DNA of 64,000 nt from Candidatus Anderseniibacteriota bacterium (GTDB lineage Bacteria; Patescibacteriota; Andersenbacteria; UBA10190): assembly GCA_021414205.1 (NCBI GenBank), contig JAIOOW010000002.1, positions 215,062 to 279,061 on the forward strand, written 5' to 3'. The notes below the pieces were generated by a model. The model did not search any database. It saw nothing but the letters and a program-made list of their open reading frames with translations, and was not told where the DNA came from. Position numbers and translations under genes: made by a program. This document shows positions 852-60,294 of the stretch, piece by piece. Within the stretch, counting starts at the first letter, position 1, and every line of letters begins with the position of its first letter.

Positions 852-906
852 CACCAAGTTGCTATTTAGGTATGTTATTTTGACCTTTCAAAACTCGGAG
901 GAAGCA

Positions 907-1347
907 ATGAAGGAAAAAGGCAGTCTGCGATCTTGTTTGCTCAAAACAATTCATCACACCGAAATGGCCAACGTTGCTTCAATGATCGAACTAGGAAGCG
1001 GTGTCGATGAATGGCAGTACCGCGCAGATTTGGTACGAACAAACATCGAAGCAGCTCAAAAGCAGGCAGAAGTATTGATGGCGGCTGTAGCTGTAAAAGC
1101 TACTGAAAGAGAAGATATCCAGGAACTCCTGCAAGGTATTCTCAAGAGATTCCAGATTTCTCTGAACTACTTCAGCGACACGTGGAAACGTATCCCAAGA
1201 ATGGTGATCATCCTGTACGTTCGCACTGAAGTTTCCATTGCATCGCTGCAACTCGATCTCTTTACTTCGTGGATAAAACCTGAAGAGAATCCAGAAATTT
1301 ATGCCGCACTCACTGCACAGGTTGTCGAATTTGGACACGACGACTAA
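907..1347 (+). CDS. hypothetical protein
   Basis: ATG preceded by a GGAGGAAGCA RBS; the protein-like ORF lies in the frame of track ORF 820..1347; no family recognised. Confidence 0.45.
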   Translation: MKEKGSLRSCLLKTIHHTEMANVASMIELGSGVDEWQYRADLVRTNIEAAQKQAEVLMAAVAVKATEREDIQELLQGILKRFQISLNYFSDTWKRIPRMVIILYVRTEVSIASLQLDLFTSWIKPEENPEIYAALTAQVVEFGHDD

Positions 1348-1833: not shown

Positions 1834-2283
1834 TTACTCTTTTCCTCGTAAGAAGATTTCTGCTTCTCGTTTGATATCTTTTTCGCGCTGTTGCTCTTTT
1901 TTATTGTGCAACTTTTTTCCTTTCGCGAGACCGATTTCAACCTTTAAAACAGAACCTTTATTATATACTCGAATTGGCACTATTGTCAACCCCGTATGCG
2001 AGATCTTCCCTGTAAGATATTTCAACTCTTCCGCAGATAATAGCAATCTGCGAGACCGAGTTTGATCATACGATTTTGGCGTATTTGCTATCTGCCATGG
2101 CGGTATAGTTGCGTTGGTTAATTCTGCATTACCGTTGTGCATAGTAACGTATGCCCCCTTGAGGCTCATATGGCCGGCACGAACGGACTTTACCTCAGTA
2201 CCAAGCAATACCAAGCCAGCCTCGAATGTTTCAAGAATTTCGAAGTCAAAATGCGCCCGTTTGTTATATGCTAGATCGGACAT
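1834..2283 (-). CDS. smpB: SsrA-binding protein SmpB
   Basis: NKRAHFDFEILETFEAGLVLLGTEVKSVR... matches the SmpB family N-terminus across its full length. Confidence 0.9.
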   Translation of the reverse strand: MSDLAYNKRAHFDFEILETFEAGLVLLGTEVKSVRAGHMSLKGAYVTMHNGNAELTNATIPPWQIANTPKSYDQTRSRRLLLSAEELKYLTGKISHTGLTIVPIRVYNKGSVLKVEIGLAKGKKLHNKKEQQREKDIKREAEIFLRGKE

Positions 2284-2318
2284 AGCTATACTGTAGCATT
2301 TTTCGGTTATAATTAAAC

Positions 2319-2891
2319 ATGATGATTAATGTACGAAATCCGCGAGACAAAGCACTAACCCCCATATTGCGATTTCTCACGCAATATAAGATAGCGCCAA
2401 ACATGGTGAGCATTGCCGGAATTATCAGCATGGTACTTTTTGGCATAGCCACGTATCTGCATATTTATTACGTTTCGATCATATTTCTTACACTCAGCGT
2501 ACTTGCGGATCTGCTCGACGGTTCGCTCGCGAGATTTCAGCATGCCTCAACGGAAGCTGGGAAAAAATTCGACCTAATCGCAGACGGCATAACGTTTACG
2601 GTATTCATGATTGCAATCGGACTTGCCCATCTACTCAGTCTTGTAGTAGCGATAATCATTATTATATTGCAAATAATTTTAACCGTTAAAAGCACTAATA
2701 AGGCAATTGCCAGTACAGCGCATACCGGCGTGCAGCTTCATGAGGTACAAGGATTTTGGATTGCAATAAGCTTGGTAAAAGCGATTATGTACGTAAGTTT
2801 TATTATTGAAATTTTCTCCTCAACAACAGCAGTGCCGATTATGCGGCTTATTGCAATTTTCATCCTTGCATTCGGAATTATAAAACGATAA
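2319..2891 (+). CDS. CDP-alcohol phosphatidyltransferase family membrane protein
   Basis: D-x2-DG-x2-AR...G-x3-D-x3-D signature (LADLLDGSLARF...GKKFDLIADG); multi-TM. Confidence 0.8.
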   Translation: MMINVRNPRDKALTPILRFLTQYKIAPNMVSIAGIISMVLFGIATYLHIYYVSIIFLTLSVLADLLDGSLARFQHASTEAGKKFDLIADGITFTVFMIAIGLAHLLSLVVAIIIIILQIILTVKSTNKAIASTAHTGVQLHEVQGFWIAISLVKAIMYVSFIIEIFSSTTAVPIMRLIAIFILAFGIIKR

Positions 2892-3188: not shown

Positions 3189-3217
3189 TTGCTTTTTGCC
3201 TCGTAAAACGCTATTAT
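3189..3217 (+). promoter_or_regulatory. promoter candidate (TTGCTT, 17 nt, TATTAT) 7 nt upstream of the infC ATG, suggesting a leaderless or very short-leader transcript
   Basis: -35 TTGCTT at 3189-3194, -10 TATTAT at 3212-3217, ATG at 3225. Confidence 0.3.
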
Positions 3218-3224
3218 ACGGGCT

Positions 3225-4358: not shown

Positions 4359-4386
4359 ACACTACCGGCCTACAGGCCGGTAGTGT
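4359..4386 (+). terminator. 12-bp perfect hairpin (ACACTACCGGCC / GGCCGGTAGTGT, 4-nt loop) between rplT and uxs; possible terminator or attenuator without a U-tract
   Basis: Perfect inverted repeat 4359-4370 / 4375-4386. Confidence 0.35.
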
Positions 4387-4399
4387 AGTATTACTGCAT

Positions 4400-5341
4400 A
4401 TGAAAATTATTGTTACAGGCGGAGCAGGATTTATAGGCAGTCATCTTATAAAGCGATTACTCGACAGAGGAGACTCCGTTATTTGCGTTGATAACTTTTT
4501 TACCGGACAACGAAAAAATATAGAACAGTTTTTACATAACCCAAATTTCTCCCTTATAGAACACGACATCGTTCAGCCGTTGGAGGGCGTAGAGGCGGAT
4601 CAAATCTACAACCTTGCATGCCCGGCATCCCCAGTGCACTACCAATTCAATCCAATTAAGACAGTGAAAACTTCGACGATTGGGATGATTAATATGCTGG
4701 GGCTGGCAAAAAGGTGCGGGGCAAGAATTCTACAAGCGTCAACGTCGGAAGTATACGGCGACCCGCACGAGCATCCGCAAAAAGAAACCTATTGGGGTAA
4801 TGTAAATACGATCGGCCCGCGCAGCTGTTACGACGAAGGCAAACGAGTTGCAGAAACGCTCTGCATGGATTACCACCGAGAACATGGCTTGGATATCCGC
4901 ATTATCAGAATTTTCAACACCTACGGGCCGAACATGCATCCCGAAGATGGCCGAGTAGTGAGCAATTTTATCGTTGAAGCGTTGGCTAATAAGCCCATTA
5001 CCATATATGGAGACGGCACCCAGACACGATCCTTTTGCTATGTCGATGACTTAGTAAACGGCATCATGGCAATGATGGATCAAGATGGATTTATCGGACC
5101 GGTGAACTTAGGAAATCCCGTGGAATTTTCGATGAAAGAACTTGCGGAAAAAGTTATCGCACTCACGGGAACATCATCAGAAATCATCTACATGCCGCTC
5201 CCTCAAGACGATCCAAAACAGCGTCAGCCAGATATTTCCGTTGCAAAAGAAAAGCTCCATTGGGAGCCAACAATCAATCTCGAAGAAGGCTTACAGAAAA
5301 CAATCGAATATTTTGAATCACTCTTGACGCAATCGAAATAA
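4400..5341 (+). CDS. uxs: UDP-glucuronate decarboxylase (UDP-xylose synthase), NAD-dependent SDR
   Basis: [10 protein letters not shown] Rossmann motif; [36 protein letters not shown] catalytic region typical of UXS/ArnA-type decarboxylases. Confidence 0.85.
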
Positions 5342-6132: not shown

Positions 6133-7048
6133 TATATATAGTACGCGCTGATTTATTAGTATTCAACCATGGCGCATTAATGTTCCAAGGAGAATCGGTA
6201 ATCTTCATAGCTCTCTTTAGCATCGCAACATCTGGAGATTCCGGTGCGCGCGGATTCTCCAAAAACGCGCCATCTTGCCGATGAATAATAGAAAACTCCC
6301 GTTTCATAGTCCAGGAGATGAGGACAAAGAGTGCTGCAATTAACACGCAGATTGCATATAATCCGTACCCTATCCCTAACAATAAATCGAATGTCCCATG
6401 CAAGAACCAGGGGATAAGGAAAGCGGGAATGAAAAATTTATTTGGCCGGAATATTTGAAACGTTCCCTGCGCAATGAGGGCGCCCATAAGCCCCGCAAAG
6501 CAGATATGCGCAAGCGTCGAGATAATAAATCGCAAGAAAAAAACGAACACCAAGGTATCGTATTGTTGACTGGTAAGCAAATCATGAAAATACAGCGTAT
6601 TTTCCAATGTTGAAAATCCAAGTCCGACCGCAACTCCGATTAATAATCCATCGAATACCTGATTTATCCTTTTACTTCTCGACATCCAAAATCGCATCGC
6701 TACGTACCGCAGCCCCTCCTCAATCGGAGCAACTATGAAAAATGTAGCAAGCGCAGGCAATAAGACATCGAGTGGGGATAATAGCGGCAAAATTGCACCC
6801 GAATAATAATGCTCCGTTGCAGGAGATATAATCCCCCAAATCTGATCCGCTTTTTTCTCCAGCCAAAATGCGGGCTCAACCAATATAAGTCCGATTCCGA
6901 ACGCCATAGCTACGGTTGTAGGCGGCACGTTCCTGGTGCGATTCCGCAAATACCACATCCACAAGAAAAACCCAGCAGGAAGCAAGCTTAATAAGAATGC
7001 TACGATCGCAATCGAAACGCCCACTGGCAATACAATAGGGTCACCCAT
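6110..7048 (-). CDS. PrsW-family intramembrane metalloprotease
   Basis: Polytopic; APIEEGLRY (EExxK/R-like), FAGLMGA and HGTFD motifs typical of the PrsW/YpdC family. Confidence 0.65.
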   Translation of the reverse strand: MGDPIVLPVGVSIAIVAFLLSLLPAGFFLWMWYLRNRTRNVPPTTVAMAFGIGLILVEPAFWLEKKADQIWGIISPATEHYYSGAILPLLSPLDVLLPALATFFIVAPIEEGLRYVAMRFWMSRSKRINQVFDGLLIGVAVGLGFSTLENTLYFHDLLTSQQYDTLVFVFFLRFIISTLAHICFAGLMGALIAQGTFQIFRPNKFFIPAFLIPWFLHGTFDLLLGIGYGLYAICVLIAALFVLISWTMKREFSIIHRQDGAFLENPRAPESPDVAMLKRAMKITDSPWNINAPWLNTNKSARTIYSATHEQE

Positions 7049-7060
7049 TGATGTAGTATA

Positions 7061-7471
7061 TCACGAGGTGCGAATCAGCGATGACTTGTATTGCTCAGGC
7101 TTATGCGCAGGCAGCCGAACTACTTTGACGTTCGGCTTTCCGATAGTTCCCAAAATCGCCCACACGTCCTCATCGGAGGGTTTTTGATCATACCCCAAGG
7201 CCAATATATCAAAATCAAGATTTTTCAATAATGCGTATGATCTCGGATCTTCATCGCCAAGCACCGCCTCATCAACATCTGGATTTTCTTGAACGGCCTG
7301 CAAGCGTTCCTGTTCTGAAATATGATGTGAACGCTGCTTTTCAATCGAGATAGTTGCATCGCGGGACACCACAACAATCAAATAATCCCCCATCTTTTTC
7401 GCTTCTCGAAATAAAAATTCGTGCCCAGGATGGAGCGGATCAAACGTGCCGAACACGACTATTTTTTTCAT
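7061..7471 (-). CDS. cytidylyltransferase-like nucleotidyltransferase (RibL/TagD-like, HxGH)
   Basis: FGTFDPLHPGHEFL (T/HxGH) motif; overall resemblance to archaeal-type FMN adenylyltransferase / glycerol-3-P cytidylyltransferase. Confidence 0.7.
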   Translation of the reverse strand: MKKIVVFGTFDPLHPGHEFLFREAKKMGDYLIVVVSRDATISIEKQRSHHISEQERLQAVQENPDVDEAVLGDEDPRSYALLKNLDFDILALGYDQKPSDEDVWAILGTIGKPNVKVVRLPAHKPEQYKSSLIRTS

Positions 7472-15754: not shown

Positions 15755-17497
15755 TTATTCTTTTGCTACTCGAAGAACTTCTTCTAAACTGGTAATTCCG
15801 CGCGCTACCTTGATAATACCATCCTCTAACATGCTTACCATTCCCTGCTCTTCCCGGGCAGCTGTTTCAAGTTCATGAGCCGTGATATTTCCCGTGACCA
15901 TCTTTTGTAAAGATGGAGTCATTTCAAACATTTCATGGATTCCTTTCCTACTCTTGTATCCCTCATGACACCTGTCGCATCCCACAGCTTCGAATAACGA
16001 CACATCTTCCCATGTTCCGCCTCCTTGAACCACTCCCTCTTGTTTTAATAATTCAAGCATATGATCAGCATCGACAATATCCGCAATGCTTGTTTTCATA
16101 GCATCCGTTACGCGCACTTCTTTTTTACAAGAGTCGCATAATTGTCGAACCAATCGCTGCGCAACAACGACGTTGATTGTAGACGCAAGCAAGAATGGTT
16201 CCACTTTCATGTCCATTAATCGCGGAATTGCACCCGTAGCACTATTAGTATGCAATGTAGACAATACCAAATGGCCGGTTAAAGCAGCATTTACTGCCAA
16301 TGATGCAGTTTCTTGGTCTCGAATTTCTCCAACCATAATAATATCCGGATCTTGACGAACAAGCGCTCGCAAACCATTTGAAAACGTCAATCCGATTTTT
16401 GGCTGAACCTGAGTTTGGTTCACGCGCTTCATCCGATATTCAATCGGATCTTCTATGGTACTGATATTCACGTCTTTAGTATTGAGCTCTCGCAGTACTG
16501 CATACAACGTAGTCGTTTTTCCAGATCCCGTTGGACCTGTAACCAAAATCATTCCATTGGGCTTTGCAATATTGTTGCGAAACATGTCTATATTTCTTTT
16601 CGACAGCCCAATTCGATCTATCGTGAGTCCATTTCCCGATTCATCTAGCAGACGCATGACGATTTTTTCTCCATCGAATACCGGGAGCGTAGATACGCGA
16701 AACGCCACATTATAATCATCGCTCTCCATTTTAAAGCGACCATCCTGAGGCAGCCGGTGTTCGTCAATCTTTAAATTGCTTAAAATCTTTATGCGCGCAA
16801 CCACTCCAGCAAGCACCGTTTTTGGCAACACCATCATATCGTGCAATATCCCGTCTATACGATATCTCACAACAACGGCATCTTCAGTAGGCTCTATATG
16901 AATATCTGAAGCATCTTTTCCAATAGCATGCCGCAACACTGCATCAACTATTTTAATAATGGGCAGGTCTTCAGCAACCTTCGATAAATCAGTATCCGTA
17001 TTACTCATTCTTACTCCTCGAGCCTCTTTCATAATCTGATCAAGGTCCGCCTCCAGCGACCCTGCATATTTCGGAAACACGTCCCTAATCGCAGAAGAAC
17101 TTGCGATGCTTACGATAACTGCAACATCTACTTTTTTGTGAATAAACTCAATAATCTGCCGATCTGCCGGATCTTCCATTGCAATAAGTAATCCTGCGTC
17201 CGTTTTATCATACGCAATCACCATGTGCTGGCGCGCAGTAGATTCTGGAATAATTTCCAATACCTCTTTTTTTATTTGGATAGACCTCAAATCTACGTAT
17301 GAAAGGCTCATTGCATTTGCATATGCCTTTGCATAATCCTCTTCACCGACCGCAAATTTGCCAATCAGCGTATTCTTGAGCGTCTCTTTTCCTTCTTTTG
17401 CCTCCACAATTGCGCGCGCAGCATCTTCTGCAGAAATTTTCTGCAGCTCAACAAGGATATGCAATACTTTTTCGTCAACCCCCTCTGCCATACTCAC
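15755..17497 (-). CDS. pilB: type IV pilus assembly ATPase PilB (GspE family)
   Basis: Walker A GPTGSGKTT, GspE N-domain; GTG start, with an in-frame ATG at 17491 preceded by a TGCTATACT -10. Confidence 0.9.
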   Translation of the reverse strand: MSMAEGVDEKVLHILVELQKISAEDAARAIVEAKEGKETLKNTLIGKFAVGEEDYAKAYANAMSLSYVDLRSIQIKKEVLEIIPESTARQHMVIAYDKTDAGLLIAMEDPADRQIIEFIHKKVDVAVIVSIASSSAIRDVFPKYAGSLEADLDQIMKEARGVRMSNTDTDLSKVAEDLPIIKIVDAVLRHAIGKDASDIHIEPTEDAVVVRYRIDGILHDMMVLPKTVLAGVVARIKILSNLKIDEHRLPQDGRFKMESDDYNVAFRVSTLPVFDGEKIVMRLLDESGNGLTIDRIGLSKRNIDMFRNNIAKPNGMILVTGPTGSGKTTTLYAVLRELNTKDVNISTIEDPIEYRMKRVNQTQVQPKIGLTFSNGLRALVRQDPDIIMVGEIRDQETASLAVNAALTGHLVLSTLHTNSATGAIPRLMDMKVEPFLLASTINVVVAQRLVRQLCDSCKKEVRVTDAMKTSIADIVDADHMLELLKQEGVVQGGGTWEDVSLFEAVGCDRCHEGYKSRKGIHEMFEMTPSLQKMVTGNITAHELETAAREEQGMVSMLEDGIIKVARGITSLEEVLRVAKE

Positions 17498-17515
17498 TAG
17501 TATAGCAGATAGTGC

Positions 17516-17986
17516 TTACTGTACGGTAATTGTTGCGTGAAATGCTGCATGCAAATGGTCATGCATGCCGAACGTTCCAACTTTCACAAATGTAAATCGA
17601 TAAAAGTCGCCGGGCGCAAGCGCATGCTTTGAATCGAATCCTGGCAGATCAGTATGGATCGGGTGCGGATCGGACGCTGGCCAGTGAGGCGAAGTGCCCG
17701 TATTTTTAAACGTTATCGTTGTTCCAGATTTTACCGTAATAGCATTTGGGACAATTCCAGCATCAGTCATTTCAACAACCGGATTTTCCGCTGCCATTAC
17801 ATCAGGTGTTATACTTGGCGCTTGTTGCACCAAAACCCCCGACGGAGAAGACGACGGCTCAGACGTAGGATTGGCATGAATATTTATAGCCTCATCATCT
17901 TGCCCTCTATGACTCATAACGTAGGCACCTGCGCCTATAATAATAACGGCGATAATAAGTAACGATATTGTAGTTGATGTTTTCAT
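17516..17986 (-). CDS. secreted/anchored cupredoxin-fold-like protein lacking Cys
   Basis: N-terminal TM, Pro/Ser linker, beta-sandwich-like C-domain with His-rich motifs (HWPASDPHPIH, FGMHDHLH) but no cysteine. Confidence 0.45.
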   Translation of the reverse strand: MKTSTTISLLIIAVIIIGAGAYVMSHRGQDDEAINIHANPTSEPSSSPSGVLVQQAPSITPDVMAAENPVVEMTDAGIVPNAITVKSGTTITFKNTGTSPHWPASDPHPIHTDLPGFDSKHALAPGDFYRFTFVKVGTFGMHDHLHAAFHATITVQ

Positions 17987-18021
17987 ACAATAACTATACC
18001 CCCGTATGCTATACTTTGGCC

Positions 18022-19644
18022 ATGTCCCTTCAAGAAGATTTGCAACGTATCATGCATGGCGAAGTTGCAGTTGACGAAACGGCAAAAAATGCAGCTAGCC
18101 GCGACACGAGCCTATTCCAAGTGCAACCTTCCGCAGTAGTTCACCCGATGAATGTGCACGACGTGTGCGAATTAGTGACATATGCAAACACTCACGAAAA
18201 TGTTTCTCTTACTGCTCGAAGCGCCGGAACGGATATGACCGGCGGTCCGCTTTCCAATGGAATTATCCTAGACATGACAACGCACTTCACTCGCATCGGT
18301 GAGATACACGGCGCTTCTATTACGGTTGAGCCAGGCGTGTATTACCGAGATCTAGAAAAAAAGACTTCAGAAAAAAACTTGGAACTGCCATCCTACCCCG
18401 CATCAAAAGAACTATGCACTGTGGGCGGAATGGTAAATAATAATTCCGGCGGAGAAAAGACTCTTCAGTACGGCAAGACTGATAGATACATTCAAGAGCT
18501 TTCTATTGTATTGTCTGACGGCAATGAATACAAATTAAGTCCTCTTACTACATCAGAATTAGATGTTGCGATGAAGCAGCAGGATTTTTTGGGTCAAGTA
18601 TATAGAGACGTGTACGAATTGCTAGAAAAAAATTACGATGCAATCCAAACGGCAAAACCACATGTATCTAAAAACTCTGCAGGATACGCGCTCTGGAATG
18701 TATGGGACAAAAAAACATTCGACCTCACAAAACTATTCGCGGGCTCCCAAGGAACGCTCGGCATAACAACAGAAATTCAATTCGGACTCGTTCGCCCAAA
18801 GAAGCATGCCGTTATGCTCGTACTCTTTTTACGTTCACTGGAACCGCTCGCAGAACTCACGAACCATATTTTAAAGTATCAGCCAGAAAGCTTTGAATCA
18901 TACGACGACCACACGCTTTCTGTGGCGCTCAGACTCTTCCCCAGCTTTGTAAGAAAATTAAAAACAAATGCATTCGCACTAGGGCTGCAGTTCCTCCCGG
19001 AATTCATGATGATGCTGAGAGGCGGACTTCCAAAATTGATTATTATGGCAGAATTCACGGGCGATGATGAAGACGAAGTAGTGCTCCGCGCGCAAAATGC
19101 GCAAAGTGCCGTTGCGAAATTCAACGTTCAATCAAGAATTGCCGTCAGTCAGCAAGAACAGGATAAATACTGGACCATTCGACGAGAAAGCTTTAACCTC
19201 TTGCGCCACCATGTGCAGGGTAAGCACACGGCACCGTTTATAGATGATTGTATTGTGGAGCCGAAATACTTGCCGGAATTCTTGCCGAAGCTTGCGGCTA
19301 TTTTAAACAAATATAACTTAGACTATACAATCGCTGGCCACGTCGGTGATGGAAATTTTCATATTATTCCGCTCATGGACTTACGCGATGAAAAGCAGAA
19401 AGCAATTATTCCGAAAGCGTCCAAAGAAGTATACGACTTGGTATTTTTATTCCACGGATCTTCAACTGCGGAACATAACGACGGATTAATCAGAAGTCAT
19501 TTATTACCGCAAATGTACGGGGAAGAAATCTACAGTTTATTTGAGGAAACAAAAAAGATATTCGATCCAAAAAATATTTTCAACCCGGGCAAAAAAGTAA
19601 ACTCAGATTGGAAATACGCGCAATCGAAAATAACGGCGTATTAA
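18022..19644 (+). CDS. FAD-binding oxidoreductase (FAD-linked oxidase, GlcD/D-lactate dehydrogenase family)
   Basis: FAD_binding_4-like N-domain (ARSAGTDMTGG, CTVGGMVNNNSGG); ATG at 18022 sits 6 nt after a TGCTATACT -10 (track ORF extends to 17974). Confidence 0.8.
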   Translation: MSLQEDLQRIMHGEVAVDETAKNAASRDTSLFQVQPSAVVHPMNVHDVCELVTYANTHENVSLTARSAGTDMTGGPLSNGIILDMTTHFTRIGEIHGASITVEPGVYYRDLEKKTSEKNLELPSYPASKELCTVGGMVNNNSGGEKTLQYGKTDRYIQELSIVLSDGNEYKLSPLTTSELDVAMKQQDFLGQVYRDVYELLEKNYDAIQTAKPHVSKNSAGYALWNVWDKKTFDLTKLFAGSQGTLGITTEIQFGLVRPKKHAVMLVLFLRSLEPLAELTNHILKYQPESFESYDDHTLSVALRLFPSFVRKLKTNAFALGLQFLPEFMMMLRGGLPKLIIMAEFTGDDEDEVVLRAQNAQSAVAKFNVQSRIAVSQQEQDKYWTIRRESFNLLRHHVQGKHTAPFIDDCIVEPKYLPEFLPKLAAILNKYNLDYTIAGHVGDGNFHIIPLMDLRDEKQKAIIPKASKEVYDLVFLFHGSSTAEHNDGLIRSHLLPQMYGEEIYSLFEETKKIFDPKNIFNPGKKVNSDWKYAQSKITAY

Positions 19645-23487: not shown

Positions 23488-24522
23488 TTATATCCCAAAC
23501 TGAGCTTTTTCCTGAGGAGGAACAAGTTGGATACGATGCTTTGCAAATAAATGGATGATATTTAAAATGATTTCTTGGCGCGCGACGAGATACACATCAA
23601 AATCACGATCATCAATAATATAGACAAGCTCGAACATAATCGCCTTAGTCCCCATCTCTACTAAAAAGGCGCTCTTGCACGCTGCATGATCAACCGCGCT
23701 AACGCTCTCTTCGAGAATGCCAGGAATTTTTGCAAGCGTTTTTGCGTCGGTACCGTATGGCACTGCAATATTCATCACAGAACGACGCTCTTTCATCCTC
23801 CTGAAATTACTAATGCGCGCAGCAGAAATATCCTTGTTCGGGATGCTCACTTCCTCTCCTGAAAGCGCCCTAATCCTAGTCGTTTTAATGCCGATTTTTT
23901 GCACTGTTCCGCTATTCCCACCCACCACAATATAATCCCCAATCACGAATGGCTTATCAAAGAATATTGCAATGGAGCTGAATAAATCTCCTAAAATATT
24001 CTGCGCAGCAAGCGCAATCGCAATTCCCCCGATTCCTAGGCCAGCAATTAAAGATGTGATATTTACTCCAAAATTCGAAAGGACGAATAATAATGCCGTC
24101 AGCCATAACGCAATTTTAATAATTCCCGATAAGATGCCTGAAACCATCGCGCTTCCAGCTTTTGTATTCGTGCGCACCTTTTCTGAAATAATAAAATCTA
24201 TAAAAATCTGAAACGCAATAATTGCCTGAATAATCGCCCAGATGATAAATACCTTATTGATAAGGGCGCTCGCAAAAGCGTCAACCCGTAAATACTGAAG
24301 CGCAAACACGAATGACGCAAACCAATAGAACGGCGCATTCACAGTTCCGATCATTTCTACGATAGCATCGTCAATTAATGTTCCCGATTTTTCTGCGAAT
24401 TTCTTACTGGATGCGAGAAGTCCCCTTTTTATAATCATCACACTGAGGGCAGCAATGGAAAATATCAACAATGCGACAGCATATTGAAACACCGTATTCC
24501 CCCAGTACGTTTCTATAGCCAT
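23488..24522 (-). CDS. mscS: small-conductance mechanosensitive channel (MscS family)
   Basis: TM region plus conserved MscS beta-domain (VQKIGIKTTRIRALSGEEVSIPN). Confidence 0.85.
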   Translation of the reverse strand: MAIETYWGNTVFQYAVALLIFSIAALSVMIIKRGLLASSKKFAEKSGTLIDDAIVEMIGTVNAPFYWFASFVFALQYLRVDAFASALINKVFIIWAIIQAIIAFQIFIDFIISEKVRTNTKAGSAMVSGILSGIIKIALWLTALLFVLSNFGVNITSLIAGLGIGGIAIALAAQNILGDLFSSIAIFFDKPFVIGDYIVVGGNSGTVQKIGIKTTRIRALSGEEVSIPNKDISAARISNFRRMKERRSVMNIAVPYGTDAKTLAKIPGILEESVSAVDHAACKSAFLVEMGTKAIMFELVYIIDDRDFDVYLVARQEIILNIIHLFAKHRIQLVPPQEKAQFGI

Positions 24523-24549
24523 ATATTGAGTATATGATACGATCGATAT

Positions 24550-25971
24550 ATGAACAACGTGCCATTATGCGTGGACTTAGACGGAACGCTCGTCCGAACA
24601 AACACATTACTCGAGACGACACTTATTACATTAAAAAAGAACCCGTTCTTTCTAATTTCCCTTGTAAAGGGGTTGCCCCGCGGCAAAGCATTCGTCAAAC
24701 GGCTCATTGGAAAACAATTTTCTACAGACCCGGCAACTTTGCCATACAATACCGAATTTCTCGACTGGATTAGGCAAGAGCGTGCAAATGGGCGAACGCT
24801 CATTCTCGCAACTGCAAGCGACGAATTAATCGCAAAAAAAATTGCTGACTATCTCGGAATATTTAGCGCCATCATTGCCAGCACGCCAGAAAAAAGCGTG
24901 ACAGCAGATGGAAAGGCACTGGTACTATGTGCGATGTACGGTTCTAGCAATTTTTCTTATGCCGGCAACTCCCATTCCGATTTATCCGTATGGAATTGCA
25001 GTAACAATGCCATACTAGTAGACGCACCAAACAATATAACTTCACAAATAAAAAAAGAAGTTCATATTGAAAAAGAATTCACAACACACACCGCGCCAAA
25101 ATTAAAAGTCATCGCAAAGACAATGCGCATTCATCAGTGGGTAAAAAATACGCTGTTATTCATACCAGCACTTGCTGCCCATGAATTATTTCAAACGCAC
25201 ACTGCAATTCAAGCGATCGTCGGCTTTTTATCATTCAGCTTACTTGCATCTGCCGTATATATTTTTAACGATATCACTGACATCCCTTCCGATAGAGCGC
25301 ATGCCACAAAGAAGTTCCGCCCTATTGCATCTGGCGCAATAGCAATCAAGCAAGCACTAGCACTCGGCGTAATCTGTTCCGTAGCAAGTATTGCCTTATC
25401 CCTACTGGCCCTCCCGATATCATTCCTCTTGATTCTTGCGATCTATCTTGGTATCAATATTTGCTATTCGCTATTCGCAAAGAAAATCGCATATCTCGAT
25501 ATTATTATCTTAGCCAGCTTATACGTACTTCGTGTGTTTGCGGGAAGCTTCGCCACAGGAATTGCAACATCAAAGTGGCTGTTCGTATGGACGCTTTTCT
25601 TCTTCTTAAGCCTGGCAATCATGAAGCGTGTTATTGAGTTGCTCAAGCACACAAAAGAAGAAAAACTGCATGGCAGAGGCTACCATAAAGCAGACAGATT
25701 AATCCTGGAGTATGCTGGCATTGCCTCGGCAAGCATTTCGGTCATCATTCTAGCTTTATATATTCATAGCCCATCGATATTCGTTCTCTATACATCCCCC
25801 GCATTACTGTGGGGCATGGTAGGCGTTGTCATGCTTTGGCTTGGGAGAATATGGACACTAGCCCTTCAAGGAGAACTTCCTGACGACCCGGTGTTATTTG
25901 CCGCTACGGACCCAATAAGCTATGGCGCTATATGCGTCATCATTGCAACCATGTTGCTTGCGTCCCACTAA
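24550..25971 (+). CDS. HAD-phosphatase / UbiA-prenyltransferase fusion (decaprenyl-phosphate phosphoribosyltransferase-like)
   Basis: N-terminal DLDGTL HAD motif I; C-terminal polytopic UbiA domain with NDITDIPSDRAHATKKFRPIASG (NDxxDxxxD). Confidence 0.8.
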   Translation: MNNVPLCVDLDGTLVRTNTLLETTLITLKKNPFFLISLVKGLPRGKAFVKRLIGKQFSTDPATLPYNTEFLDWIRQERANGRTLILATASDELIAKKIADYLGIFSAIIASTPEKSVTADGKALVLCAMYGSSNFSYAGNSHSDLSVWNCSNNAILVDAPNNITSQIKKEVHIEKEFTTHTAPKLKVIAKTMRIHQWVKNTLLFIPALAAHELFQTHTAIQAIVGFLSFSLLASAVYIFNDITDIPSDRAHATKKFRPIASGAIAIKQALALGVICSVASIALSLLALPISFLLILAIYLGINICYSLFAKKIAYLDIIILASLYVLRVFAGSFATGIATSKWLFVWTLFFFLSLAIMKRVIELLKHTKEEKLHGRGYHKADRLILEYAGIASASISVIILALYIHSPSIFVLYTSPALLWGMVGVVMLWLGRIWTLALQGELPDDPVLFAATDPISYGAICVIIATMLLASH

Positions 25972-28293: not shown

Positions 28294-28309
28294 ATTGGGA
28301 TAGTTACCA

Positions 28310-29032
28310 CTAATTGAGTGCGGAATCTATTGCTTGCTGGAACGTTGCGTATGGCTGGGCACCAATAATCGGCGTTTGCTTGCCATCTTTGCCAATGAGA
28401 ATGAAGAACGGCGTACCAACTTGTTGACCTGCGGCACTCATAACCTTTTCAACTGCCACAAGCTCGTCCTCATCCGCCTGTACAACATTCCCGTACGGCG
28501 CATCCTTAATGCATGATTGAAATGCTGAGATATCAGCAACTCCGGCTTCTTGCGCATACTTCGGCAAATCGGCAAGATTTAACCCGTCATTCGAGGGCGT
28601 ATTAGAGAAAATAGTATCTGTAAATTCCCAAAACTTCCCTTGTGCACTCGCACATTCTGCAGCAATCGCTTCTTGCGTTGTTTGTTGATGCACAGAAAGG
28701 CCGTGTCGATATACAAGACGAACCTTACCCGCATTATTTGCCATTAACTGCTTAAGAGTATTATGGGCTATTTTACAAAACGGGCATTCTAAATCCGAAT
28801 ATTCGATAAGGGTTACCGGTGCGTTTTTATCGCCCATAATATGATCCGCATCGGAAATTGCTCGAATATCAAAATGATCCGGCAACGGTCCGGGAGTAGC
28901 TTGCTGTGCGACTTGAGCGGCAGGAGCAACGGGAGCAGGCCCTACTTTTGAAAAATAGATACCTCCCGCAATTAACGCTCCTGCAATAACAATGGCTGCG
29001 GGAATTGAGAAAGCCTGTTTTATTTCTGGCAT
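28310..29032 (-). CDS. DsbA-like thioredoxin-fold oxidoreductase (membrane-anchored)
   Basis: CPFC active site, N-terminal TM, thioredoxin fold. Confidence 0.75.
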   Translation of the reverse strand: MPEIKQAFSIPAAIVIAGALIAGGIYFSKVGPAPVAPAAQVAQQATPGPLPDHFDIRAISDADHIMGDKNAPVTLIEYSDLECPFCKIAHNTLKQLMANNAGKVRLVYRHGLSVHQQTTQEAIAAECASAQGKFWEFTDTIFSNTPSNDGLNLADLPKYAQEAGVADISAFQSCIKDAPYGNVVQADEDELVAVEKVMSAAGQQVGTPFFILIGKDGKQTPIIGAQPYATFQQAIDSALN

Positions 29033-29042
29033 AGCGCTAACG

Positions 29043-29279
29043 CTACGCGATTTCTAGAAGCTGTGCAAGACGTGGCTGATTAAACCCAATCGTAATTTCA
29101 CCATCAATATCAATAACAGGCACCCCCATTTGCTTTGACTTTTCAAGCATTTCAGCGCGAGCAACAGGGTCAGATGCTACGTCTTTTTCCGTATATCCGA
29201 TTTGGTTTTGGGCAAAATAGTCTTTTGTAGCCCTGCACCATCCGCAGGAAGGAGTTGAGTAGATTGTAACGTTTTTCAT
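29043..29279 (-). CDS. glutaredoxin/NrdH-like small redoxin
   Basis: 78 aa, CGWC active-site motif near the N-terminus, glutaredoxin-like length. Confidence 0.7.
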   Translation of the reverse strand: MKNVTIYSTPSCGWCRATKDYFAQNQIGYTEKDVASDPVARAEMLEKSKQMGVPVIDIDGEITIGFNQPRLAQLLEIA

Positions 29280-29345
29280 AATTGTTCACTTAATAGTAAC
29301 TTTGGCATTGTACCAAATATATCCATTTCCCGCTATACTTTTTAC

Positions 29346-30206
29346 ATGTATATCGCATTTGATATCGGCGGAACAAACACGAGAATAGCCATTTCAAAAG
29401 ACGGCAAAACTCTCAACAAGCCCTCTATATACCCTACACCACAAGATTTTGATACCGGGATACAGAAATTCATCGAAACAGTAAAAAACATTTCCGGCAA
29501 TGAGCCTATCACGGCAATTGCCGGAGGAATTCCTGGTCCAATGGATCCTCAAAAAACAATGTTACTTAAAGCGCCAAATTTGAAGGGCTGGAACAACAAG
29601 CCACTAAAAGCTTTGCTTGAAAAAGAATTGCAAACTCAGGTCTTCCTAGAGAACGATACTGCCATGTGGGGTATCGGTGAAGCAACGCGTGGCGCAGGCC
29701 AAGGGTTCGCTATTATGGCTTACGTAACAGTCAGTACCGGTGTTGGCGGAACAAGAATCGTTCATGAAAAAATAGATGCGAGTGCACAAGGATTCGAACC
29801 TGGACACCAAATTATCGACCTCGCAGGCCCTGAGTGCGGATGCGGCGGAAACGGTCATCTGGAAGCATTTATATCTGGTACAGCATTGCAAAAAAAATAC
29901 GGAAAAGCTCCTAAAGAGATTAAAGATGCTCAGGTATGGGACGAAACAGCGAAATACTTGGCAATAGGCCTGCTTAATACAGCGGTATTTTGGTCACCTC
30001 ATTGCATTGTACTAGGAGGGTCAATAATGAAAGATATCGATATAGACCTCGTGCAAACGTATATGCGAGAATACAACCATATCCTACCGACCTTGCCTGC
30101 TATAAAAAAATCAACGCTCGGTGATGAAGGAGGCTTAATTGGGGCCCTGCAGCTTGCGTGCTACACTACTACACATGGATCTGTCGATCGTAGTACCAGC
30201 ATATAA
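29346..30206 (+). CDS. ROK-family sugar kinase (glucokinase-like)
   Basis: DIGGTNTR N-terminus; CGCGGNGHLE zinc motif of the ROK family. Confidence 0.8.
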   Translation: MYIAFDIGGTNTRIAISKDGKTLNKPSIYPTPQDFDTGIQKFIETVKNISGNEPITAIAGGIPGPMDPQKTMLLKAPNLKGWNNKPLKALLEKELQTQVFLENDTAMWGIGEATRGAGQGFAIMAYVTVSTGVGGTRIVHEKIDASAQGFEPGHQIIDLAGPECGCGGNGHLEAFISGTALQKKYGKAPKEIKDAQVWDETAKYLAIGLLNTAVFWSPHCIVLGGSIMKDIDIDLVQTYMREYNHILPTLPAIKKSTLGDEGGLIGALQLACYTTTHGSVDRSTSI

Positions 30207-30963: not shown

Positions 30964-30974
30964 TATGCGCATAT

Positions 30975-32531: not shown

Positions 32532-33653
32532 ATGCATAGCATTTCCGGAAAACGAATACTATTCTTGAATTGGAAGGATGTTCTCAACCCCGAATCCGGA
32601 GGTGCGGAAGTATTAACAGATGCTCTTGCAAGCCATCTTGCAGAAACAAACGAGGTTTTTTTTATCACCTCATCATTTCCGAACGCAAAACAGAAACAAG
32701 TACATAATAATTACACGATATTGCGCAAAGGCACCACGCTCACGTGCATACTGTATGCATTTTTTACATATAAAAAATTATCTACAGAAAAAAAATTCGA
32801 TCTTATTATTGACCAAGCCCATGGCATCCCATTTTTTTCGATACTATACCCTCATCGCCCAAAAATCCTCATACTTATTCATGAAGTTGCCGGGGAATTA
32901 TGGTCAAGCGTTCTTCCACACACTATCGGCAAAATAGTAGATACAATATGGCTGCGGCTCTACAAAAATCAGCAATTCATTACAGTCTCTAATTCCACAA
33001 AACAAGAACTGACAAAACACCATATTATTGAAAAAAATATTTCTATTGTTCCGAATTTTACAGCCATTTCATTACCAGAAATTCCTCAAAAAGCAGAGCA
33101 TCCGACTCTCCTCGTCCTTGGCAGGATAGCTCCGGTCAAACGTATCGAGCACGCAATACGAGCATTTCAAATTGTAAAAGAAACTGTTCCGAATATTCAT
33201 CTTGTTATTATTGGAAAAAGGGAAAAGAAATACGATTCATATTATCAGGATATCAATACATCCATTCAAAACGATAATAAAATCACGATTATTACAAATG
33301 CAGACGAGGAGGAAAAACTGCATTGGCTTAAAGAGTCGCACATCCTCCTCATGCCTTCTAAAAAAGAAGGGTATGGCATCGCAATACTTGAAGCTGCTGC
33401 ATGCGGAACGCCTGCGATCGGATACAATGTTCCAGGAACGCGCGATGCTATCATTGATAATAAAACCGGATTAATTGCGGACCAAGAAAACCCGAAATCA
33501 CTAGCTGCTTGCATTGAAAAAATACTGACTAATCTGGGGACGTTCAATCAACTGCAAAAAGAAGGATTTACCAATGCCCGCCAAAAGCAGAAAAGGCATA
33601 CAATTTCAACATGGGACGCAATACTGAAACAAATAATCCAGATTACGCCATGA
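32532..33653 (+). CDS. glycosyltransferase family 4
   Basis: EGYGIAILEAAACGTPAIGYNVPG GT4 C-domain. Confidence 0.8.
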   Translation: MHSISGKRILFLNWKDVLNPESGGAEVLTDALASHLAETNEVFFITSSFPNAKQKQVHNNYTILRKGTTLTCILYAFFTYKKLSTEKKFDLIIDQAHGIPFFSILYPHRPKILILIHEVAGELWSSVLPHTIGKIVDTIWLRLYKNQQFITVSNSTKQELTKHHIIEKNISIVPNFTAISLPEIPQKAEHPTLLVLGRIAPVKRIEHAIRAFQIVKETVPNIHLVIIGKREKKYDSYYQDINTSIQNDNKITIITNADEEEKLHWLKESHILLMPSKKEGYGIAILEAAACGTPAIGYNVPGTRDAIIDNKTGLIADQENPKSLAACIEKILTNLGTFNQLQKEGFTNARQKQKRHTISTWDAILKQIIQITP

Positions 33654-47662: not shown

Positions 47663-49001
47663 TAAGCAAGTATTTCGAATTATTACAAATGAGGAAGCAC
47701 GCCAGCAGGAAACGCTTTCGATGATTCCTTCCGAGAATTGGTTTTCATCGTCCGTTCGCGAAGCTGTCGGGTCCGTCATGTCACACAAATACGCAGAAGG
47801 AAATATTGGGTCAAGATACTATGAAGGCAATCAATATATCGACGAACTAGAACAACTTGCAATAGATCGGGCAAAAAAAGCATTTAATTTGCCAAAAACA
47901 TGGGATGTAAACGTCCAGGCTCTATCCGGAAGCAGCGCAAATTTGGCAGTATACCTAGCGCTCCTCCAACCAGGCGACACTATGCTTGCCATGTACCTGC
48001 CTGACGGCGGGCATTTATCTCACGGATGGTCATTTGAACCGGATGCGAAGAAGCGCGAAAAAGATGTAAAATCCGGCTTGCTCGTATACACAGGTGGAAG
48101 CCGCAAAGTAAACATTACGTCTATTTTATATAATCCCGTTCAATATAAAACAGATCCGAAAACATCCCAATTTGACTACAAAGAAATTGAAAAGATTGCG
48201 CTCAAATATAAGCCGAAGCTCATTATTACTGGAGGCACTGCATATCCAAGAATTATTAATTATAGAAAGATGAAAGCAATCGCCAAGAAAGTTGGCGCAT
48301 TCTATATGGCAGATATTGCGCATGAGGCAGGGTTAGTAGCCGGCGGCGCATTCCCATCCCCAGTCGGCATTGCAGACGTTGTTACTATGACGACCCATAA
48401 AACATTGCGATCTGGCCGCGGCGCAATTATTCTTGCAAAAAAAGAACTCATAGAAAAAATAAACCGAGCAATCTTGCCAGGTTTACAGGGTGGTCCGCAC
48501 AATCACAATATTGCCGGCATTGCAGTTGGGTTGGGCGAGGCTATCAAGCCGACATTTAAAAAATACGCAAAACAAGTAGTTCTAAATGCGCAGGCACTTG
48601 GCAAAGCACTGCAGGCACAAGACTTCAAACTAGTCACAGACGGAACAGACAAGCATTTGCTACTGATCGATTTATCGCACGAACCATTGCTTGGCCGACC
48701 ATTTGCGCGCGTACTCGCACTCGCAGGCATTACCGCAAACTACTCCACGATGCCATGGGATTCCCGCCCGCCTCGCAACCCATCCGCACTTCGACTCGGA
48801 ACGCCAGTTCTAACGACCCGTGGCATGAAAGAAAAAGAAATGGTTAAAATTGCTGAGTGGATCCGCGAAGCAATGCGTACCGCAGAACCGTGGAAGGAGC
48901 TGTCGTTTGAGCAATTAGAGAAAGAAGCTACTAAATCTAAAGACATCAAGCAGATCGCCAAAGAAGTAAAAGAACTTTGCAAAACGTTCCCGTTGGCCTA
49001 A
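47631..49001 (+). CDS. glyA: serine hydroxymethyltransferase
   Basis: LSMIPSENWFS, THKTLRSGRGA PLP-lysine motif; start overlaps the folA 3' end. Confidence 0.9.
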   Translation: MYAMNNLQKTDKQVFRIITNEEARQQETLSMIPSENWFSSSVREAVGSVMSHKYAEGNIGSRYYEGNQYIDELEQLAIDRAKKAFNLPKTWDVNVQALSGSSANLAVYLALLQPGDTMLAMYLPDGGHLSHGWSFEPDAKKREKDVKSGLLVYTGGSRKVNITSILYNPVQYKTDPKTSQFDYKEIEKIALKYKPKLIITGGTAYPRIINYRKMKAIAKKVGAFYMADIAHEAGLVAGGAFPSPVGIADVVTMTTHKTLRSGRGAIILAKKELIEKINRAILPGLQGGPHNHNIAGIAVGLGEAIKPTFKKYAKQVVLNAQALGKALQAQDFKLVTDGTDKHLLLIDLSHEPLLGRPFARVLALAGITANYSTMPWDSRPPRNPSALRLGTPVLTTRGMKEKEMVKIAEWIREAMRTAEPWKELSFEQLEKEATKSKDIKQIAKEVKELCKTFPLA

Positions 49002-49011
49002 TATAGGCGTC

Positions 49012-49872
49012 ATGACGTATTTCATGACGCAATGGTATATATTCCAAGACTTAACCGATCAGGAGGTTTTGGATATCCAAAAAGATCTTCGTGAAATTGG
49101 ATCTACCCACGACATGAACGGTTTAATTTTGCTCGCCAACGAAGGCTGCAATGGGACGGTGGCCGGCTCTCCAGAAGCAATTGAGACCATTCGCGCATAC
49201 CTTACTGAAGCATTCCCAAAGATTTCATTTCAAGATTGGACCAGCGACATAAAGCCATTTAAGCGATTTAAAGTAGATATCCGAAAAGAAATCGTTGCAT
49301 TAAAACATGAGGGCATTCTTCCGGCGGGAAATGCTAAGCATCTTTCTCCGAAAGAATTTCATGAAATGATGCAAAAAGGCGATGTAACTGTGCTAGATAC
49401 TAGAAATACCTACGAAACAAAAATCGGAACGTTTGAGAATGCAATTGATCCGAAATTAGAATCATTTTATCAATTCCCGAAATTCGTAGAAGAGAGCAAT
49501 ATTCCGAAAGATAAACCCGTCCTCATGTTCTGCACGAGCGGAATTCGGTGTGAAAAAGCAGGAGAGGAAATGGCGCATCAAGGATATAAAGAGGTGTATC
49601 AACTCGATGGCGGCATCACGAATTATTTAAAAGAGTATCCGAACGGCAAATGGAATGGCGAATGCTTTATGTTCGACCATCGCGTTGCTGTGGATTCGCA
49701 TTTGCAACCAAGTAAGCGCTACGCCCTCTGCCCTATCTGCGGCAACCCGGGCGACGTGCAAGCCGCATGTTCCGTATGCGGTAGTGAGTCCAAATACTGC
49801 GCAGACTGCCTCGCAGTAAATCCTGCCACCTGTTCTCGGGCATGCAGACACGAGGTGCAAAAGTCAGCCTAA
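49012..49872 (+). CDS. trhO: rhodanese-domain tRNA U34 hydroxylase TrhO (YceA/UPF0176 family) with a C-terminal Cys cluster
   Basis: Rhodanese active-site loop CTSGIRCEKAG, N-terminal YceA-like domain, C-terminal CPICG...CSVCG...CADC. Confidence 0.7.
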   Translation: MTYFMTQWYIFQDLTDQEVLDIQKDLREIGSTHDMNGLILLANEGCNGTVAGSPEAIETIRAYLTEAFPKISFQDWTSDIKPFKRFKVDIRKEIVALKHEGILPAGNAKHLSPKEFHEMMQKGDVTVLDTRNTYETKIGTFENAIDPKLESFYQFPKFVEESNIPKDKPVLMFCTSGIRCEKAGEEMAHQGYKEVYQLDGGITNYLKEYPNGKWNGECFMFDHRVAVDSHLQPSKRYALCPICGNPGDVQAACSVCGSESKYCADCLAVNPATCSRACRHEVQKSA

Positions 49873-51291: not shown

Positions 51292-51319
51292 ATAATGCAT
51301 ACTACTATAAACTTACGGA

Positions 51320-51733
51320 ATGCATAAAGGTTTTGTACTAGTAGCATTTTTGGGCCTCGTAGTTGCGGGATACCTGTTTATTACCTACACATCCCCCATC
51401 CCTATTACCTGCGTTGCAGGAGAAGGCTGCAAAACAGTCCAAGCAAGCCATTTCTCTTCATTCTTCGGCATTCCAACGCCAGCCTATGGCATTATCTACT
51501 ATCTTGCTCTTGGCATTTTTGGCGCACTATGGCAAAAAAATTCCTCGAAGCTGTTTAATCTCGCCCTGACAATACTTACCTCTAGCGGACTTGCGATATC
51601 TATATTTTTATCCTATCTCGAGGCGTTTGTGGTGCATGCATGGTGCTCCTGGTGCGTTACCAGCGCAATCCTTACTGTAGTTGCATTCATTATAAATTGG
51701 CGTGTAGTATCAAACCATGACACTCACATCTGA
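51320..51733 (+). CDS. vitamin K epoxide reductase (VKOR)-family membrane protein
   Basis: Loop cysteines CVAGEGC and CSWC active site in the last TM; 4-5 TM. Confidence 0.75.
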   Translation: MHKGFVLVAFLGLVVAGYLFITYTSPIPITCVAGEGCKTVQASHFSSFFGIPTPAYGIIYYLALGIFGALWQKNSSKLFNLALTILTSSGLAISIFLSYLEAFVVHAWCSWCVTSAILTVVAFIINWRVVSNHDTHI

Positions 51734-58983: not shown

Positions 58984-59057
58984 ACGCAAAGTATAGCATA
59001 GTCCACATGTCAAGTTGCGTTCGTATCTTGCGAGTATACGCTTAGATATAGAAAGAG

Positions 59058-60280: not shown

Positions 60281-60294
60281 GAGTATACAGCAGC

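Follow-up and report, generated by a model that had tools for sequence, protein, structure and literature searches.

The subject of this analysis is a hexamer of the form TANNNT that stands just ahead of many start codons in a 64,000-nt stretch (hereafter the window) of contig JAIOOW010000002.1, which belongs to a Candidatus Anderseniibacteriota bacterium of the Candidate Phyla Radiation (CPR, or Patescibacteria) and has a GC content of about 44%. About 45% of the window genes carry this start-proximal −10 box, a share drawn from a sample as small as 64 kb, and the box is a property of the genome and not of the seven genes at which a preliminary description had pointed it out. We consider it likely that these boxes are promoters of the −10-only or extended −10 kind, from which transcription begins at the A of the ATG, yielding leaderless mRNAs. 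Every sequence-based test supports the frequent leaderless-type placement that the preliminary description had proposed, whose scale it had understated; polymerase binding at the boxes, a transcription start site (TSS) at the A of the ATG and leaderless translation nevertheless remain steps that we infer.

As we picture the mechanism, housekeeping promoters of the sigma70/RpoD type would be reduced to a −10 hexamer with the consensus TAtA(a/c/g)T, often with a G at −14 or a full TGn ahead of it and with a −35 element that is weak or absent. The sigma70 −10 hexamer spans positions −12 to −7, and polymerase normally starts at the seventh or eighth base past it. The TSS is placed here from this E. 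coli-type geometry and the 6- to 7-nt spacer: a 6-nt spacer would put +1 on the A of the ATG, and a 7-nt spacer would put it on that A or one base earlier. The transcript would be a leaderless mRNA with a 5′-terminal AUG, translated without Shine-Dalgarno pairing; operon-internal genes have overlapping stop and start codons instead, and classic Shine-Dalgarno sites are found at a minority of genes.

The hexamer ahead of window start codons

In the upstream regions of all long open reading frames (ORFs) in the window, hexamers resembling a −10 box stand close to many ATGs, and Shine-Dalgarno motifs are rare. Under an unbiased rule that takes the first ATG of each of the 59 ORFs, TANNNT ends 6 nt before the ATG in 13 of 59 and 7 nt before it in 8 of 59, where about 1 is expected at each offset from 0 to 30. 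Counted over 5 to 8 nt, the hexamer precedes 26 of the 59 first ATGs versus 7.0% of 2462 other ATGs (Fisher p=1.8e-14), and no excess is seen at any other offset. In a curated map of 61 Pfam-annotated genes, with rpmI, folA and glyA among those corrected, 30 genes have a box at 5 to 8 nt, 26 of these at 6 to 7 nt and 8 with TGn. Third-party gene calls from public contigs 100% identical to the window supply 46 starts, 21 of which have TANNNT 5 to 8 nt upstream (18 at 6 to 7 nt; binomial p=7.5e-13). A Shine-Dalgarno-like motif precedes only 5 of these 46 starts versus 25 of 42 in E. coli K-12, where the same measures, applied as a control, find the box at 2 of 42 annotated genes. Clear Shine-Dalgarno motifs stand at 5405 (AGGTGA), 8362 (GGGGGAG) and 55084 (AAGGTG), besides 907 and 59067; none lies in the spacer of a box-bearing gene of the curated map. 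An Rfam scan found no leader or riboswitch in the window, including the region before infC. Operon classes based on the gaps between ORFs of at least 60 aa proved noisy from spurious ORFs and were dropped in favor of the Pfam-curated and third-party genes.

The enrichment over shuffled controls that the preliminary description had anticipated is found in the window. GCTATACT occurs 5 times versus 1.43 expected, and GCTATACT-N6-7-ATG occurs 4 times versus 0.05 expected; none of 100 shuffles reaches 4, and all four are gene starts. The looser TGnTAnnnT-N6/7-ATG has 11 matches in the window, 8 of them curated gene starts. Chance is excluded as the origin of the start-proximal motif. The sites that the preliminary description had quoted, together with the cupredoxin-like gene that is divergent from the FAD oxidase (35 nt separate the two ATGs), are as follows.

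18007..18024, plus strand: FAD-linked oxidase; TGCTATACT extended −10 at 18007-18015, 6-nt spacer ttggcc, ATG 18022
17984..17998, minus strand: cupredoxin-like gene; TATAGT, 6-nt spacer, ATG 17986
17489..17507, minus strand: pilB (T2SSE ATPase); TGCTATACT at 17499-17507, 7-nt spacer agtgagt, ATG 17491
29331..29348, plus strand: ROK kinase; CGCTATACT at 29331-29339, 6-nt spacer ttttac, ATG 29346
58981..58998, minus strand: hypothetical gene with a weak Gmad2 match; TGCTATACT at 58990-58998, 6-nt spacer ttgcgt, ATG 58983
24520..24534, minus strand: mscS; TATACT at 24529-24534, 6-nt spacer, ATG 24522
48976..49014, plus strand: trhO; TTTGCA (−35-like), 17 nt, TAATAT, 7-nt spacer, ATG 49012; the −10 box overlaps the glyA stop codon
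3209..3227, plus strand: infC (IF3); CGCTATTAT (TATTAT), 7-nt spacer, ATG 3225

All four nonamer sites are present where they had been placed, as are the TATTAT 7 nt before infC and the TTTGCA-17-TAATAT-7-ATG arrangement at trhO, and none of the quoted spacers contains a Shine-Dalgarno motif, as had been said. The TATACT before mscS is also real; the 8 nt given for its distance is wrong, and it lies 6 nt from ATG 24522. Pfam bears out the identities of the FAD oxidase, ROK, PilB/T2SSE, MscS, TrhO-like and IF3 genes, and the label "Gmad2-like" rests on a sub-threshold match (E 4e-4, 21.1 bits versus a cut-off of 25.7). Third-party calls use the same starts that had been chosen at 18022, 29346, 58983, 24522, 49012 and 3225. 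The FAD-linked oxidase has the domains FAD_binding_4 and FAD-oxidase_C, and its independent call is a 540-aa protein from ATG 18022; the ROK kinase aligns to Pfam ROK from residue 2 and has the same start in the independent call; and the call for the hypothetical gene (305 aa) takes ATG 58983 and not the upstream ATG 59073. PilB is a T2SSE protein (Pfam E 3.8e-131) with its box 9 nt past the cupredoxin stop codon, and an exact-sequence look-up of its 578- and 580-aa versions (ATG 17491 or GTG 17497) found no gene call on record.

Start codons could in principle be mis-assigned: the real starts would have ordinary leaders and lie upstream or downstream, and in A/T-rich sequence the boxes would have come to stand near ATGs by chance. 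Start calling in CPR metagenome-assembled genomes is error-prone, and at several genes another possible start lies only a few codons away. Such an account is scarcely credible against the evidence at hand: the first-ATG rule and the third-party calls give the same enrichment, which is confined to offsets of 5 to 8 nt, and E. coli treated alike gives 2 of 42. Moreover, Pfam alignments begin at residues 1-5 for ROK, UvrD, the family 2 glycosyltransferase (GT2), gpsA, bL20, SmpB and the epimerase, so that the true starts cannot lie downstream, and alignments of FAD-oxidase orthologues start at residue 1. Start candidates with TGnTANNNT-N6/7 are ATG in 45 of 47 cases, in a set that includes false candidates, and about 93% of curated starts are ATG anyway.

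Transcription signal versus translation signal

The same A/T-rich hexamer might instead be a non-Shine-Dalgarno translation signal, an S1-binding or "group B" ribosome site, on a leadered mRNA. It does stand about as far from the start as a ribosome-binding site would, few starts have a Shine-Dalgarno motif (the 5 of 46 above), and some overlapping or internal window genes carry it. This reading is nevertheless very unlikely. TGn is a sigma-factor contact, and in the window pooled with 28 related loci (excluding L030, an Actinomycetes locus, and L021, labelled Gammaproteobacteria) it stands before 29 of 71 (41%) start-proximal hexamers, defined as those 6 to 7 nt before the first ATG, versus 500 of 9514 (5.3%) other TANNNT, an enrichment of about 8-fold (odds ratio 12.4, p=1.2e-18). 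A G at −14 precedes 51% of the start-proximal hexamers versus 23% of the others in this pooled set, and 52% of the window boxes; TATACT, TATAAT and TATAGT are the commonest start-proximal hexamers. When the sequences are aligned on the ATG, T reaches 0.36 at −12 and 0.39 at −7 and A reaches 0.48 at −11, and no rise of G is seen from −6 to −13, where a Shine-Dalgarno motif would sit. The signal is an exact T-A-n-n-n-T with variable N positions, and not a general A/U-rich tract.

The distribution of the box over operons argues in the same direction. A ribosome site should mark operon-internal genes too, as in group B genomes, where the same non-Shine-Dalgarno motif is found at all genes. With third-party gene calls in three close relatives (L031, L034 and L036; SmpB 86-90% identical), the box is found at 24 of 50 uncoupled genes (12 of 20 divergent ones) versus 2 of 19 coupled genes (p=0.005), that is, genes with a gap of at most 4 nt or an overlap, and at none of the 19 does it lie at 6 to 7 nt. 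In the window, 13 of 16 divergently transcribed genes have a box. The figure for overlapping or internal window genes, 8 of 22 in the curated table, is less clear-cut than in the relatives, in part because upstream genes contain promoters of the genes that follow; UvrD (22793) and GT2 (30175), which are the strongest of the internal cases, lie between functionally unrelated genes and have TGC extensions, which fits separate transcription units. Operon-internal genes show 4-nt stop/start overlaps (ATGA, GTGA), consistent with translational coupling. By these comparisons, the candidate promoter hexamers behave as sigma70 −10 elements and not as ribosome sites.

A different objection accepts real −10 boxes but has transcription start nearer the hexamer or at scattered positions, with leaders of 1-5 nt or more, or places the main promoters further upstream and makes these boxes secondary. 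In N. lyticus (TM7x), the one CPR bacterium for which TSSs have been inferred, and then only from RNA sequencing coverage, the distance from −10 element to TSS is reported to be unusually variable (PMC12641261). In the window, read-through out of the cupredoxin gene could extend to pilB, and a few genes (35338, 55540) have boxes 17-19 nt upstream of the start. Still, the modal 6-nt spacer is the canonical discriminator length, a sharpness that a variable TSS leaves unexplained, and it sets a purine, the A of the ATG, at the preferred start position. Divergent pairs only 27-35 nt apart leave upstream promoters no room outside neighboring coding sequence, and leaders of 1-3 nt behave as leaderless anyway. 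We therefore regard this objection as unlikely to hold, and keep to −10-driven transcription from the A of the ATG as the preferred reading.

Several observations weigh against that preferred reading, and they have to be set beside the statistics above. Only about 27% of the window boxes (8 of 30) have a full TGn, and among the assigned boxes there are weak ones, such as TAGCGT, TAACCT and TAGGAT, that may stand there by chance, given a background of about 7%. The pilB, gpsA, Mur ligase, glyoxalase and CDP-OH transferase genes have two start codons within 3-12 nt, and at such two-start genes the choice of start or of spacer length was guided partly by the box itself. Pyrimidine at −1 is just marginally enriched (76% versus 65%, p=0.05). 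Finally, two-hexamer sigma70 promoters are not enriched (30 found versus 36.7 expected), which means that the boxes would have to work with little −35 contribution. Little contribution from −35 is plausible at extended −10 promoters; by experiment it has been shown only in Deinococcus. In the pooled set, the best −35 match is 2.69 versus 2.41 of 6, a slight excess only. A −35-dependent sigma70 promoter model was dropped, since the two-hexamer scan is unenriched and misses sites; with a weak −35 element as well, the architecture would be −10-only or extended −10.

Conservation, further sites and neighboring genes

The TANNNT peak recurs in 289 genes of 30 related loci, with 36 boxes at spacer 6 and 17 at spacer 7 versus about 7 at other offsets, and individual boxes can be followed from gene to gene. 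Among orthologues of the FAD oxidase (42-90% identity), TGnTA(t/c)A(a/c)T stands 6-9 nt ahead of the start codon; the TGn box is kept in L001, L002, L004, L008, L009, L010, L014, L016, L025 and L029, the orthologue in L005 has TACAAT without TGn, and in a further two GGTG or GAGG takes its place. L002 retains the two divergent boxes, each with its 6-nt spacer, and the rest of the 35-nt intergenic region has changed. There and in L031, the FAD-oxidase box reads TGtTATACT+6 with both flanks altered, and the cupredoxin-side box on the minus strand has gone from the window's TATAGT to TATACT at the same 6-nt spacing, again with different flanks. The infC box is cgcTATTAT in the window and cgcTAGTAT, cgcTACTAT and cgcTACTAT in orthologues, always +7. 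The smpB box is TGcTACAGT+6 in L031 and L036 and TGaTACAGT+6 in L034; PrsW orthologues have TGaTATACT at +6 or +7; and for the epimerase, L034 has TAGTAT+8, L031 TATACT+6 and L033 TGcTAGACT+6. A fixed T-A---T and spacing with drifting N positions is the pattern that selection on a −10 element would predict.

These comparisons also bear on the 15-mer that, as the preliminary description had noticed, the FAD-oxidase and hypothetical-gene sites have in common. TATGCTATACTTTG(G/C) is indeed present at 18005-18019 and 58986-59000, with an identical 14-mer at 18005-18018 (plus strand) and 58987-59000 (minus strand). Read as a specific regulatory site, TATGCTATACTTTG might be an operator, an alternative-sigma promoter or a short repeat of a small regulon: 14 identical bases stand at the same spacing from the ATG at two sites, and five extra matches beyond the nonamer have a chance of about 1-2% by a hand estimate. 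Yet the likeness ends at the 14-mer, the flanks being unrelated to each other and changed in the FAD-oxidase orthologue of L002/L031; there is a continuous gradation from the nonamer to TGnTAnnnT sites in general; and the four nonamer genes have no obvious functional link. A dedicated regulatory site is thus most unlikely. Because the flanks are unrelated and not conserved, the simplest notion is two near-consensus promoters, and the shared 14-mer, about 5 bases longer than the functional nonamer needs, is probably their coincidence.

The trait is strongest in the window's own clade, and its share falls with distance. On third-party gene calls, the box is found at about 37% of genes in the close relatives L031, L034 and L036, at 32% in L035 (SmpB 73% identical), at 18% in L032 (69%) and at 14% in L033 (64%). 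L032 and L033 are GC-richer (52-53%) and have many GGAGG-type sites; in the three more distant relatives together, 12 of 58 uncoupled genes have the box and 19 of 58 a Shine-Dalgarno motif. This gradient, with more Shine-Dalgarno use at higher GC, suggests that leaderless use can change over short evolutionary distances. A bolder and more tentative proposal, which we hold to be possible but doubtful, is that leaderless initiation from −10-only or extended −10 promoters is dominant in this low-GC CPR clade, at a frequency at least that of Deinococcus-Thermus, with promoters embedded in the 3′ ends of neighbors and back-to-back pairs packed into 27-35 nt, following a recent clade-specific shift from Shine-Dalgarno. 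That the shift would be recent and confined to the clade is argued from the greater Shine-Dalgarno use in relatives at 64-73% SmpB identity. As a separate matter, public labels of near-identical genomes conflict, reading "Candidatus Saccharibacteria" in third-party annotation assemblies and "Candidatus Andersenbacteria" in the protein names of NCBI metagenome-assembled genomes; the latter label goes with a 100%-identical SmpB and an 88%-identical founding genome.

Further sites in the window, including two Shine-Dalgarno-led counter-examples, are given here.

897..909, plus strand: counter-example, Shine-Dalgarno-led gene; GGAGGA, 4 nt, ATG 907
2281..2298, minus strand: smpB; TGCTACAGT, 6-nt spacer, ATG 2283, same start in the independent call
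2285..2292, plus strand: fifth GCTATACT, without an adjoining start codon; overlapping the smpB −10 box on the other strand, it probably does not act as a promoter in its own right
2308..2324, plus strand: CDP-alcohol phosphatidyltransferase; TATAAT, with a spacer of 5 nt to ATG 2319 or of 8 nt to ATG 2322, the latter being the independent call
4386..4402, plus strand: NAD-dependent epimerase; TAGTAT, 8-nt spacer, ATG 4400
7046..7063, minus strand: PrsW protease; TGATATACT, 6-nt spacer, ATG 7048; box right after the upstream gene's stop codon
22791..22808, minus strand: UvrD/PD-(D/E)XK helicase-nuclease; TGCTACTGT, 6-nt spacer, ATG 22793; putative promoter inside the lgt 3′ end; Pfam UvrD from residue 4, same start in the independent call
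24535..24552, plus strand: HAD-UbiA prenyltransferase, divergent from mscS with 27 nt between ATGs; TGATACGAT, 6-nt spacer, ATG 24550
29030..29045, minus strand: DsbA-like gene, a weaker candidate; TAGCGT, 7-nt spacer, ATG 29032
30159..30177, plus strand: glycosyltransferase family 2; TGCTACACT, 7-nt spacer, ATG 30175; putative promoter inside the ROK 3′ end; Pfam from residue 4, same start in the independent call
33599..33613, plus strand: FkbM methyltransferase; TACAAT, 6-nt spacer, ATG 33611
51289..51322, both strands: divergent gpsA and VKOR; gpsA TAGTAT+7, ATG 51291 (minus), the independent caller using ATG 51300 instead; VKOR TAAACT+6, ATG 51320 (plus)
51705..51719, plus strand: DsbA-like gene; TAGTAT, 6-nt spacer, ATG 51717
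59055..59069, plus strand: counter-example, Shine-Dalgarno-led gene; GAGGTG, 6 nt, ATG 59067
60272..60287, minus strand: glyoxalase; TATACT 7 nt before ATG 60274 and 1 nt before ATG 60280, the start that the independent caller chose

For the glycosyltransferase gene GT1a, the independent caller uses TTG 32565, and an exact-sequence look-up from ATG 32532 gave no match.

Two arrangements of these sites deserve description. At 22791-22808 (minus), 30159-30177 (plus), 33599-33613 (plus) and 51705-51719 (plus), the −10 box lies inside the 3′ coding end of the upstream gene on the same strand, the ORFs overlapping by 17-43 nt (lgt/UvrD, ROK/GT2, GT1/FkbM and VKOR/DsbA, with a TGC extension at 22791 and 30159); internal promoters within coding sequence are implied. 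In addition, five divergent pairs have 27-35 nt between their starts: 2283 and 2319, 17986 and 18022, 24522 and 24550, 44324 and 44355, and 51291 and 51320. In four of the five, both genes have a −10 box; in the remaining pair, GT1c (ATG 44355) is without one. For every putative promoter the −35 region would fall inside the neighboring gene, and the polymerase footprints must overlap. The arrangement is kept in L031 and L036.

The infC gene looks leaderless, with its TATTAT+7. It begins with ATG, and the region 3209-3776 is without the AUU start and the leader structures of IF3/L20 autoregulation in model bacteria; rplT, 9 nt past rpmI, also has a box, TAATAT+6, which overlaps the rpmI stop codon. 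A transfer-messenger RNA (tmRNA) gene lies at 1420-1824 on the minus strand (Rfam RF00023, 84.6 bits), 9 nt downstream of smpB (1834-2283, minus), and the leaderless-type smpB promoter may also drive this ssrA gene. ARAGORN reported no tRNA or tmRNA in the window; the tmRNA was detected by Rfam. Three relatives have a serine recombinase (resolvase) gene near smpB (L031 10828-12381, L034 10904-12445, L035 19243-20450), and the window has only the tmRNA gene at the equivalent place, which hints at an integration hotspot at ssrA.

Elsewhere in the window, the type IV pilus cluster contains a PMT-family protein O-mannosyltransferase gene (11313-13228, minus strand) directly downstream of a pilin with an N-methyl motif, a placement that suggests pilin glycosylation. 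The FAD-oxidase and UvrD-like genes converge, with a 4-nt overlap at the stop codons (19641-19644) in which terminators have no room; in the 15-31 kb region, hairpins of the terminator type show no enrichment (15 found versus 15.3 expected). A glycosyltransferase island at 26589-45476 has at least 9 glycosyltransferase genes plus the FkbM methyltransferase, along with ORFs that have no Pfam match at 35338-38943 (1201 aa), 40718-43045 (775 aa) and 30975-32507 (510 aa). Beyond it (45489-49001, plus strand), thyX encodes 564 aa with two Thy1 stretches, a tandem fusion, and is followed by folA (GTG 47180, GTGA overlap) and then glyA (ATG 47631 or 47640); thyX and folA in one operon is unusual.

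Significance and relation to known systems

If the reading of these boxes as promoters of leaderless mRNAs is confirmed, a leaderless (group C) model is the one to use in calling the gene starts of these CPR genomes, for callers that assume Shine-Dalgarno sites will misplace them; examples of ambiguous starts here are those of pilB, gpsA, glyoxalase and Mur ligase. Promoters of these uncultured organisms would become readable from sequence, an aid to building expression cassettes for the few genetically tractable Patescibacteria. A deep-branching, ribosome-reduced lineage would also join the leaderless-rich Actinobacteria and Deinococcus-Thermus, which bears on whether this mode of initiation is ancestral or repeatedly gained. 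Were the mode dominant in the clade, as in the more tentative proposal above, it would connect genome streamlining and the reduced ribosome of CPR bacteria with a changed mode of translation initiation.

At the extended −10 promoters (TGnTATAAT) of E. coli and Gram-positive bacteria, TGn contacts sigma region 3.0, and the mRNAs are normally leadered. The window resembles them in having TGn directly adjoining the hexamer and a −35 element that is weak or absent, and differs in that its boxes are placed so that the predicted +1 is the start codon. With the "group D" leaderless genes of archaea it shares a predicted start codon at the mRNA 5′ end and the large fraction of the genome affected, but the archaeal element is a TATA box about 26 nt upstream, whereas that of the window is a bacterial −10 box at −12 to −7. 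The "−10 region adjacent to ORF" mode of Deinococcus-Thermus also has TANNNT a few bp upstream of the ORF. In Deinococcus, the −10 motif alone suffices, the −35 element is a dispensable booster and the motif is found at about 30% of ORFs, a share reported to exceed that of the other phyla surveyed (PMC12340547). Those results come from reporters and RNA sequencing; the window's share of about 45% is a count from 64 kb of sequence.

The geometry in the window matches that of the "group C" leaderless genomes of GeneMarkS-2, in which first-in-operon genes have a Pribnow box at 6-8 nt from the start and which comprise 90% of Actinobacteria and 97% of Deinococcus-Thermus (PMC6028130, which also cites differential RNA sequencing of D. 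deserti). As in Mycobacterium tuberculosis and Streptomyces, TANNNT stands 6-8 nt from the start with no Shine-Dalgarno motif there, Shine-Dalgarno sites or coupling serve other genes, and the share resembles the roughly 25-50% of transcripts predicted to be leaderless in bacteria of this type (PMC6028130; PMC3898074; PMC3160421). The window shows the start-proximal TANNNT peak, placement at first-in-operon genes, and Shine-Dalgarno sites at genes other than those with boxes. Unlike the high-GC actinobacteria of group C, its host is a CPR organism of about 44% GC in which TGn and G at −14 are prominent. Loss of the anti-Shine-Dalgarno sequence is reported in only some Parcubacteria by a study of CPR ribosomes (PMC9297842). 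We found no published link of leaderless mRNAs to Saccharibacteria, Patescibacteria, CPR, Parcubacteria or TM7 in a full-text search that did not cover the GeneMarkS-2 supplementary genome lists, which might class CPR genomes, and the TM7x transcriptome preprint contains no discussion of promoters or untranslated regions. What the window presents appears to be a known architecture, that of group C, in a CPR lineage where it is apparently undescribed; the mechanism itself is not new.

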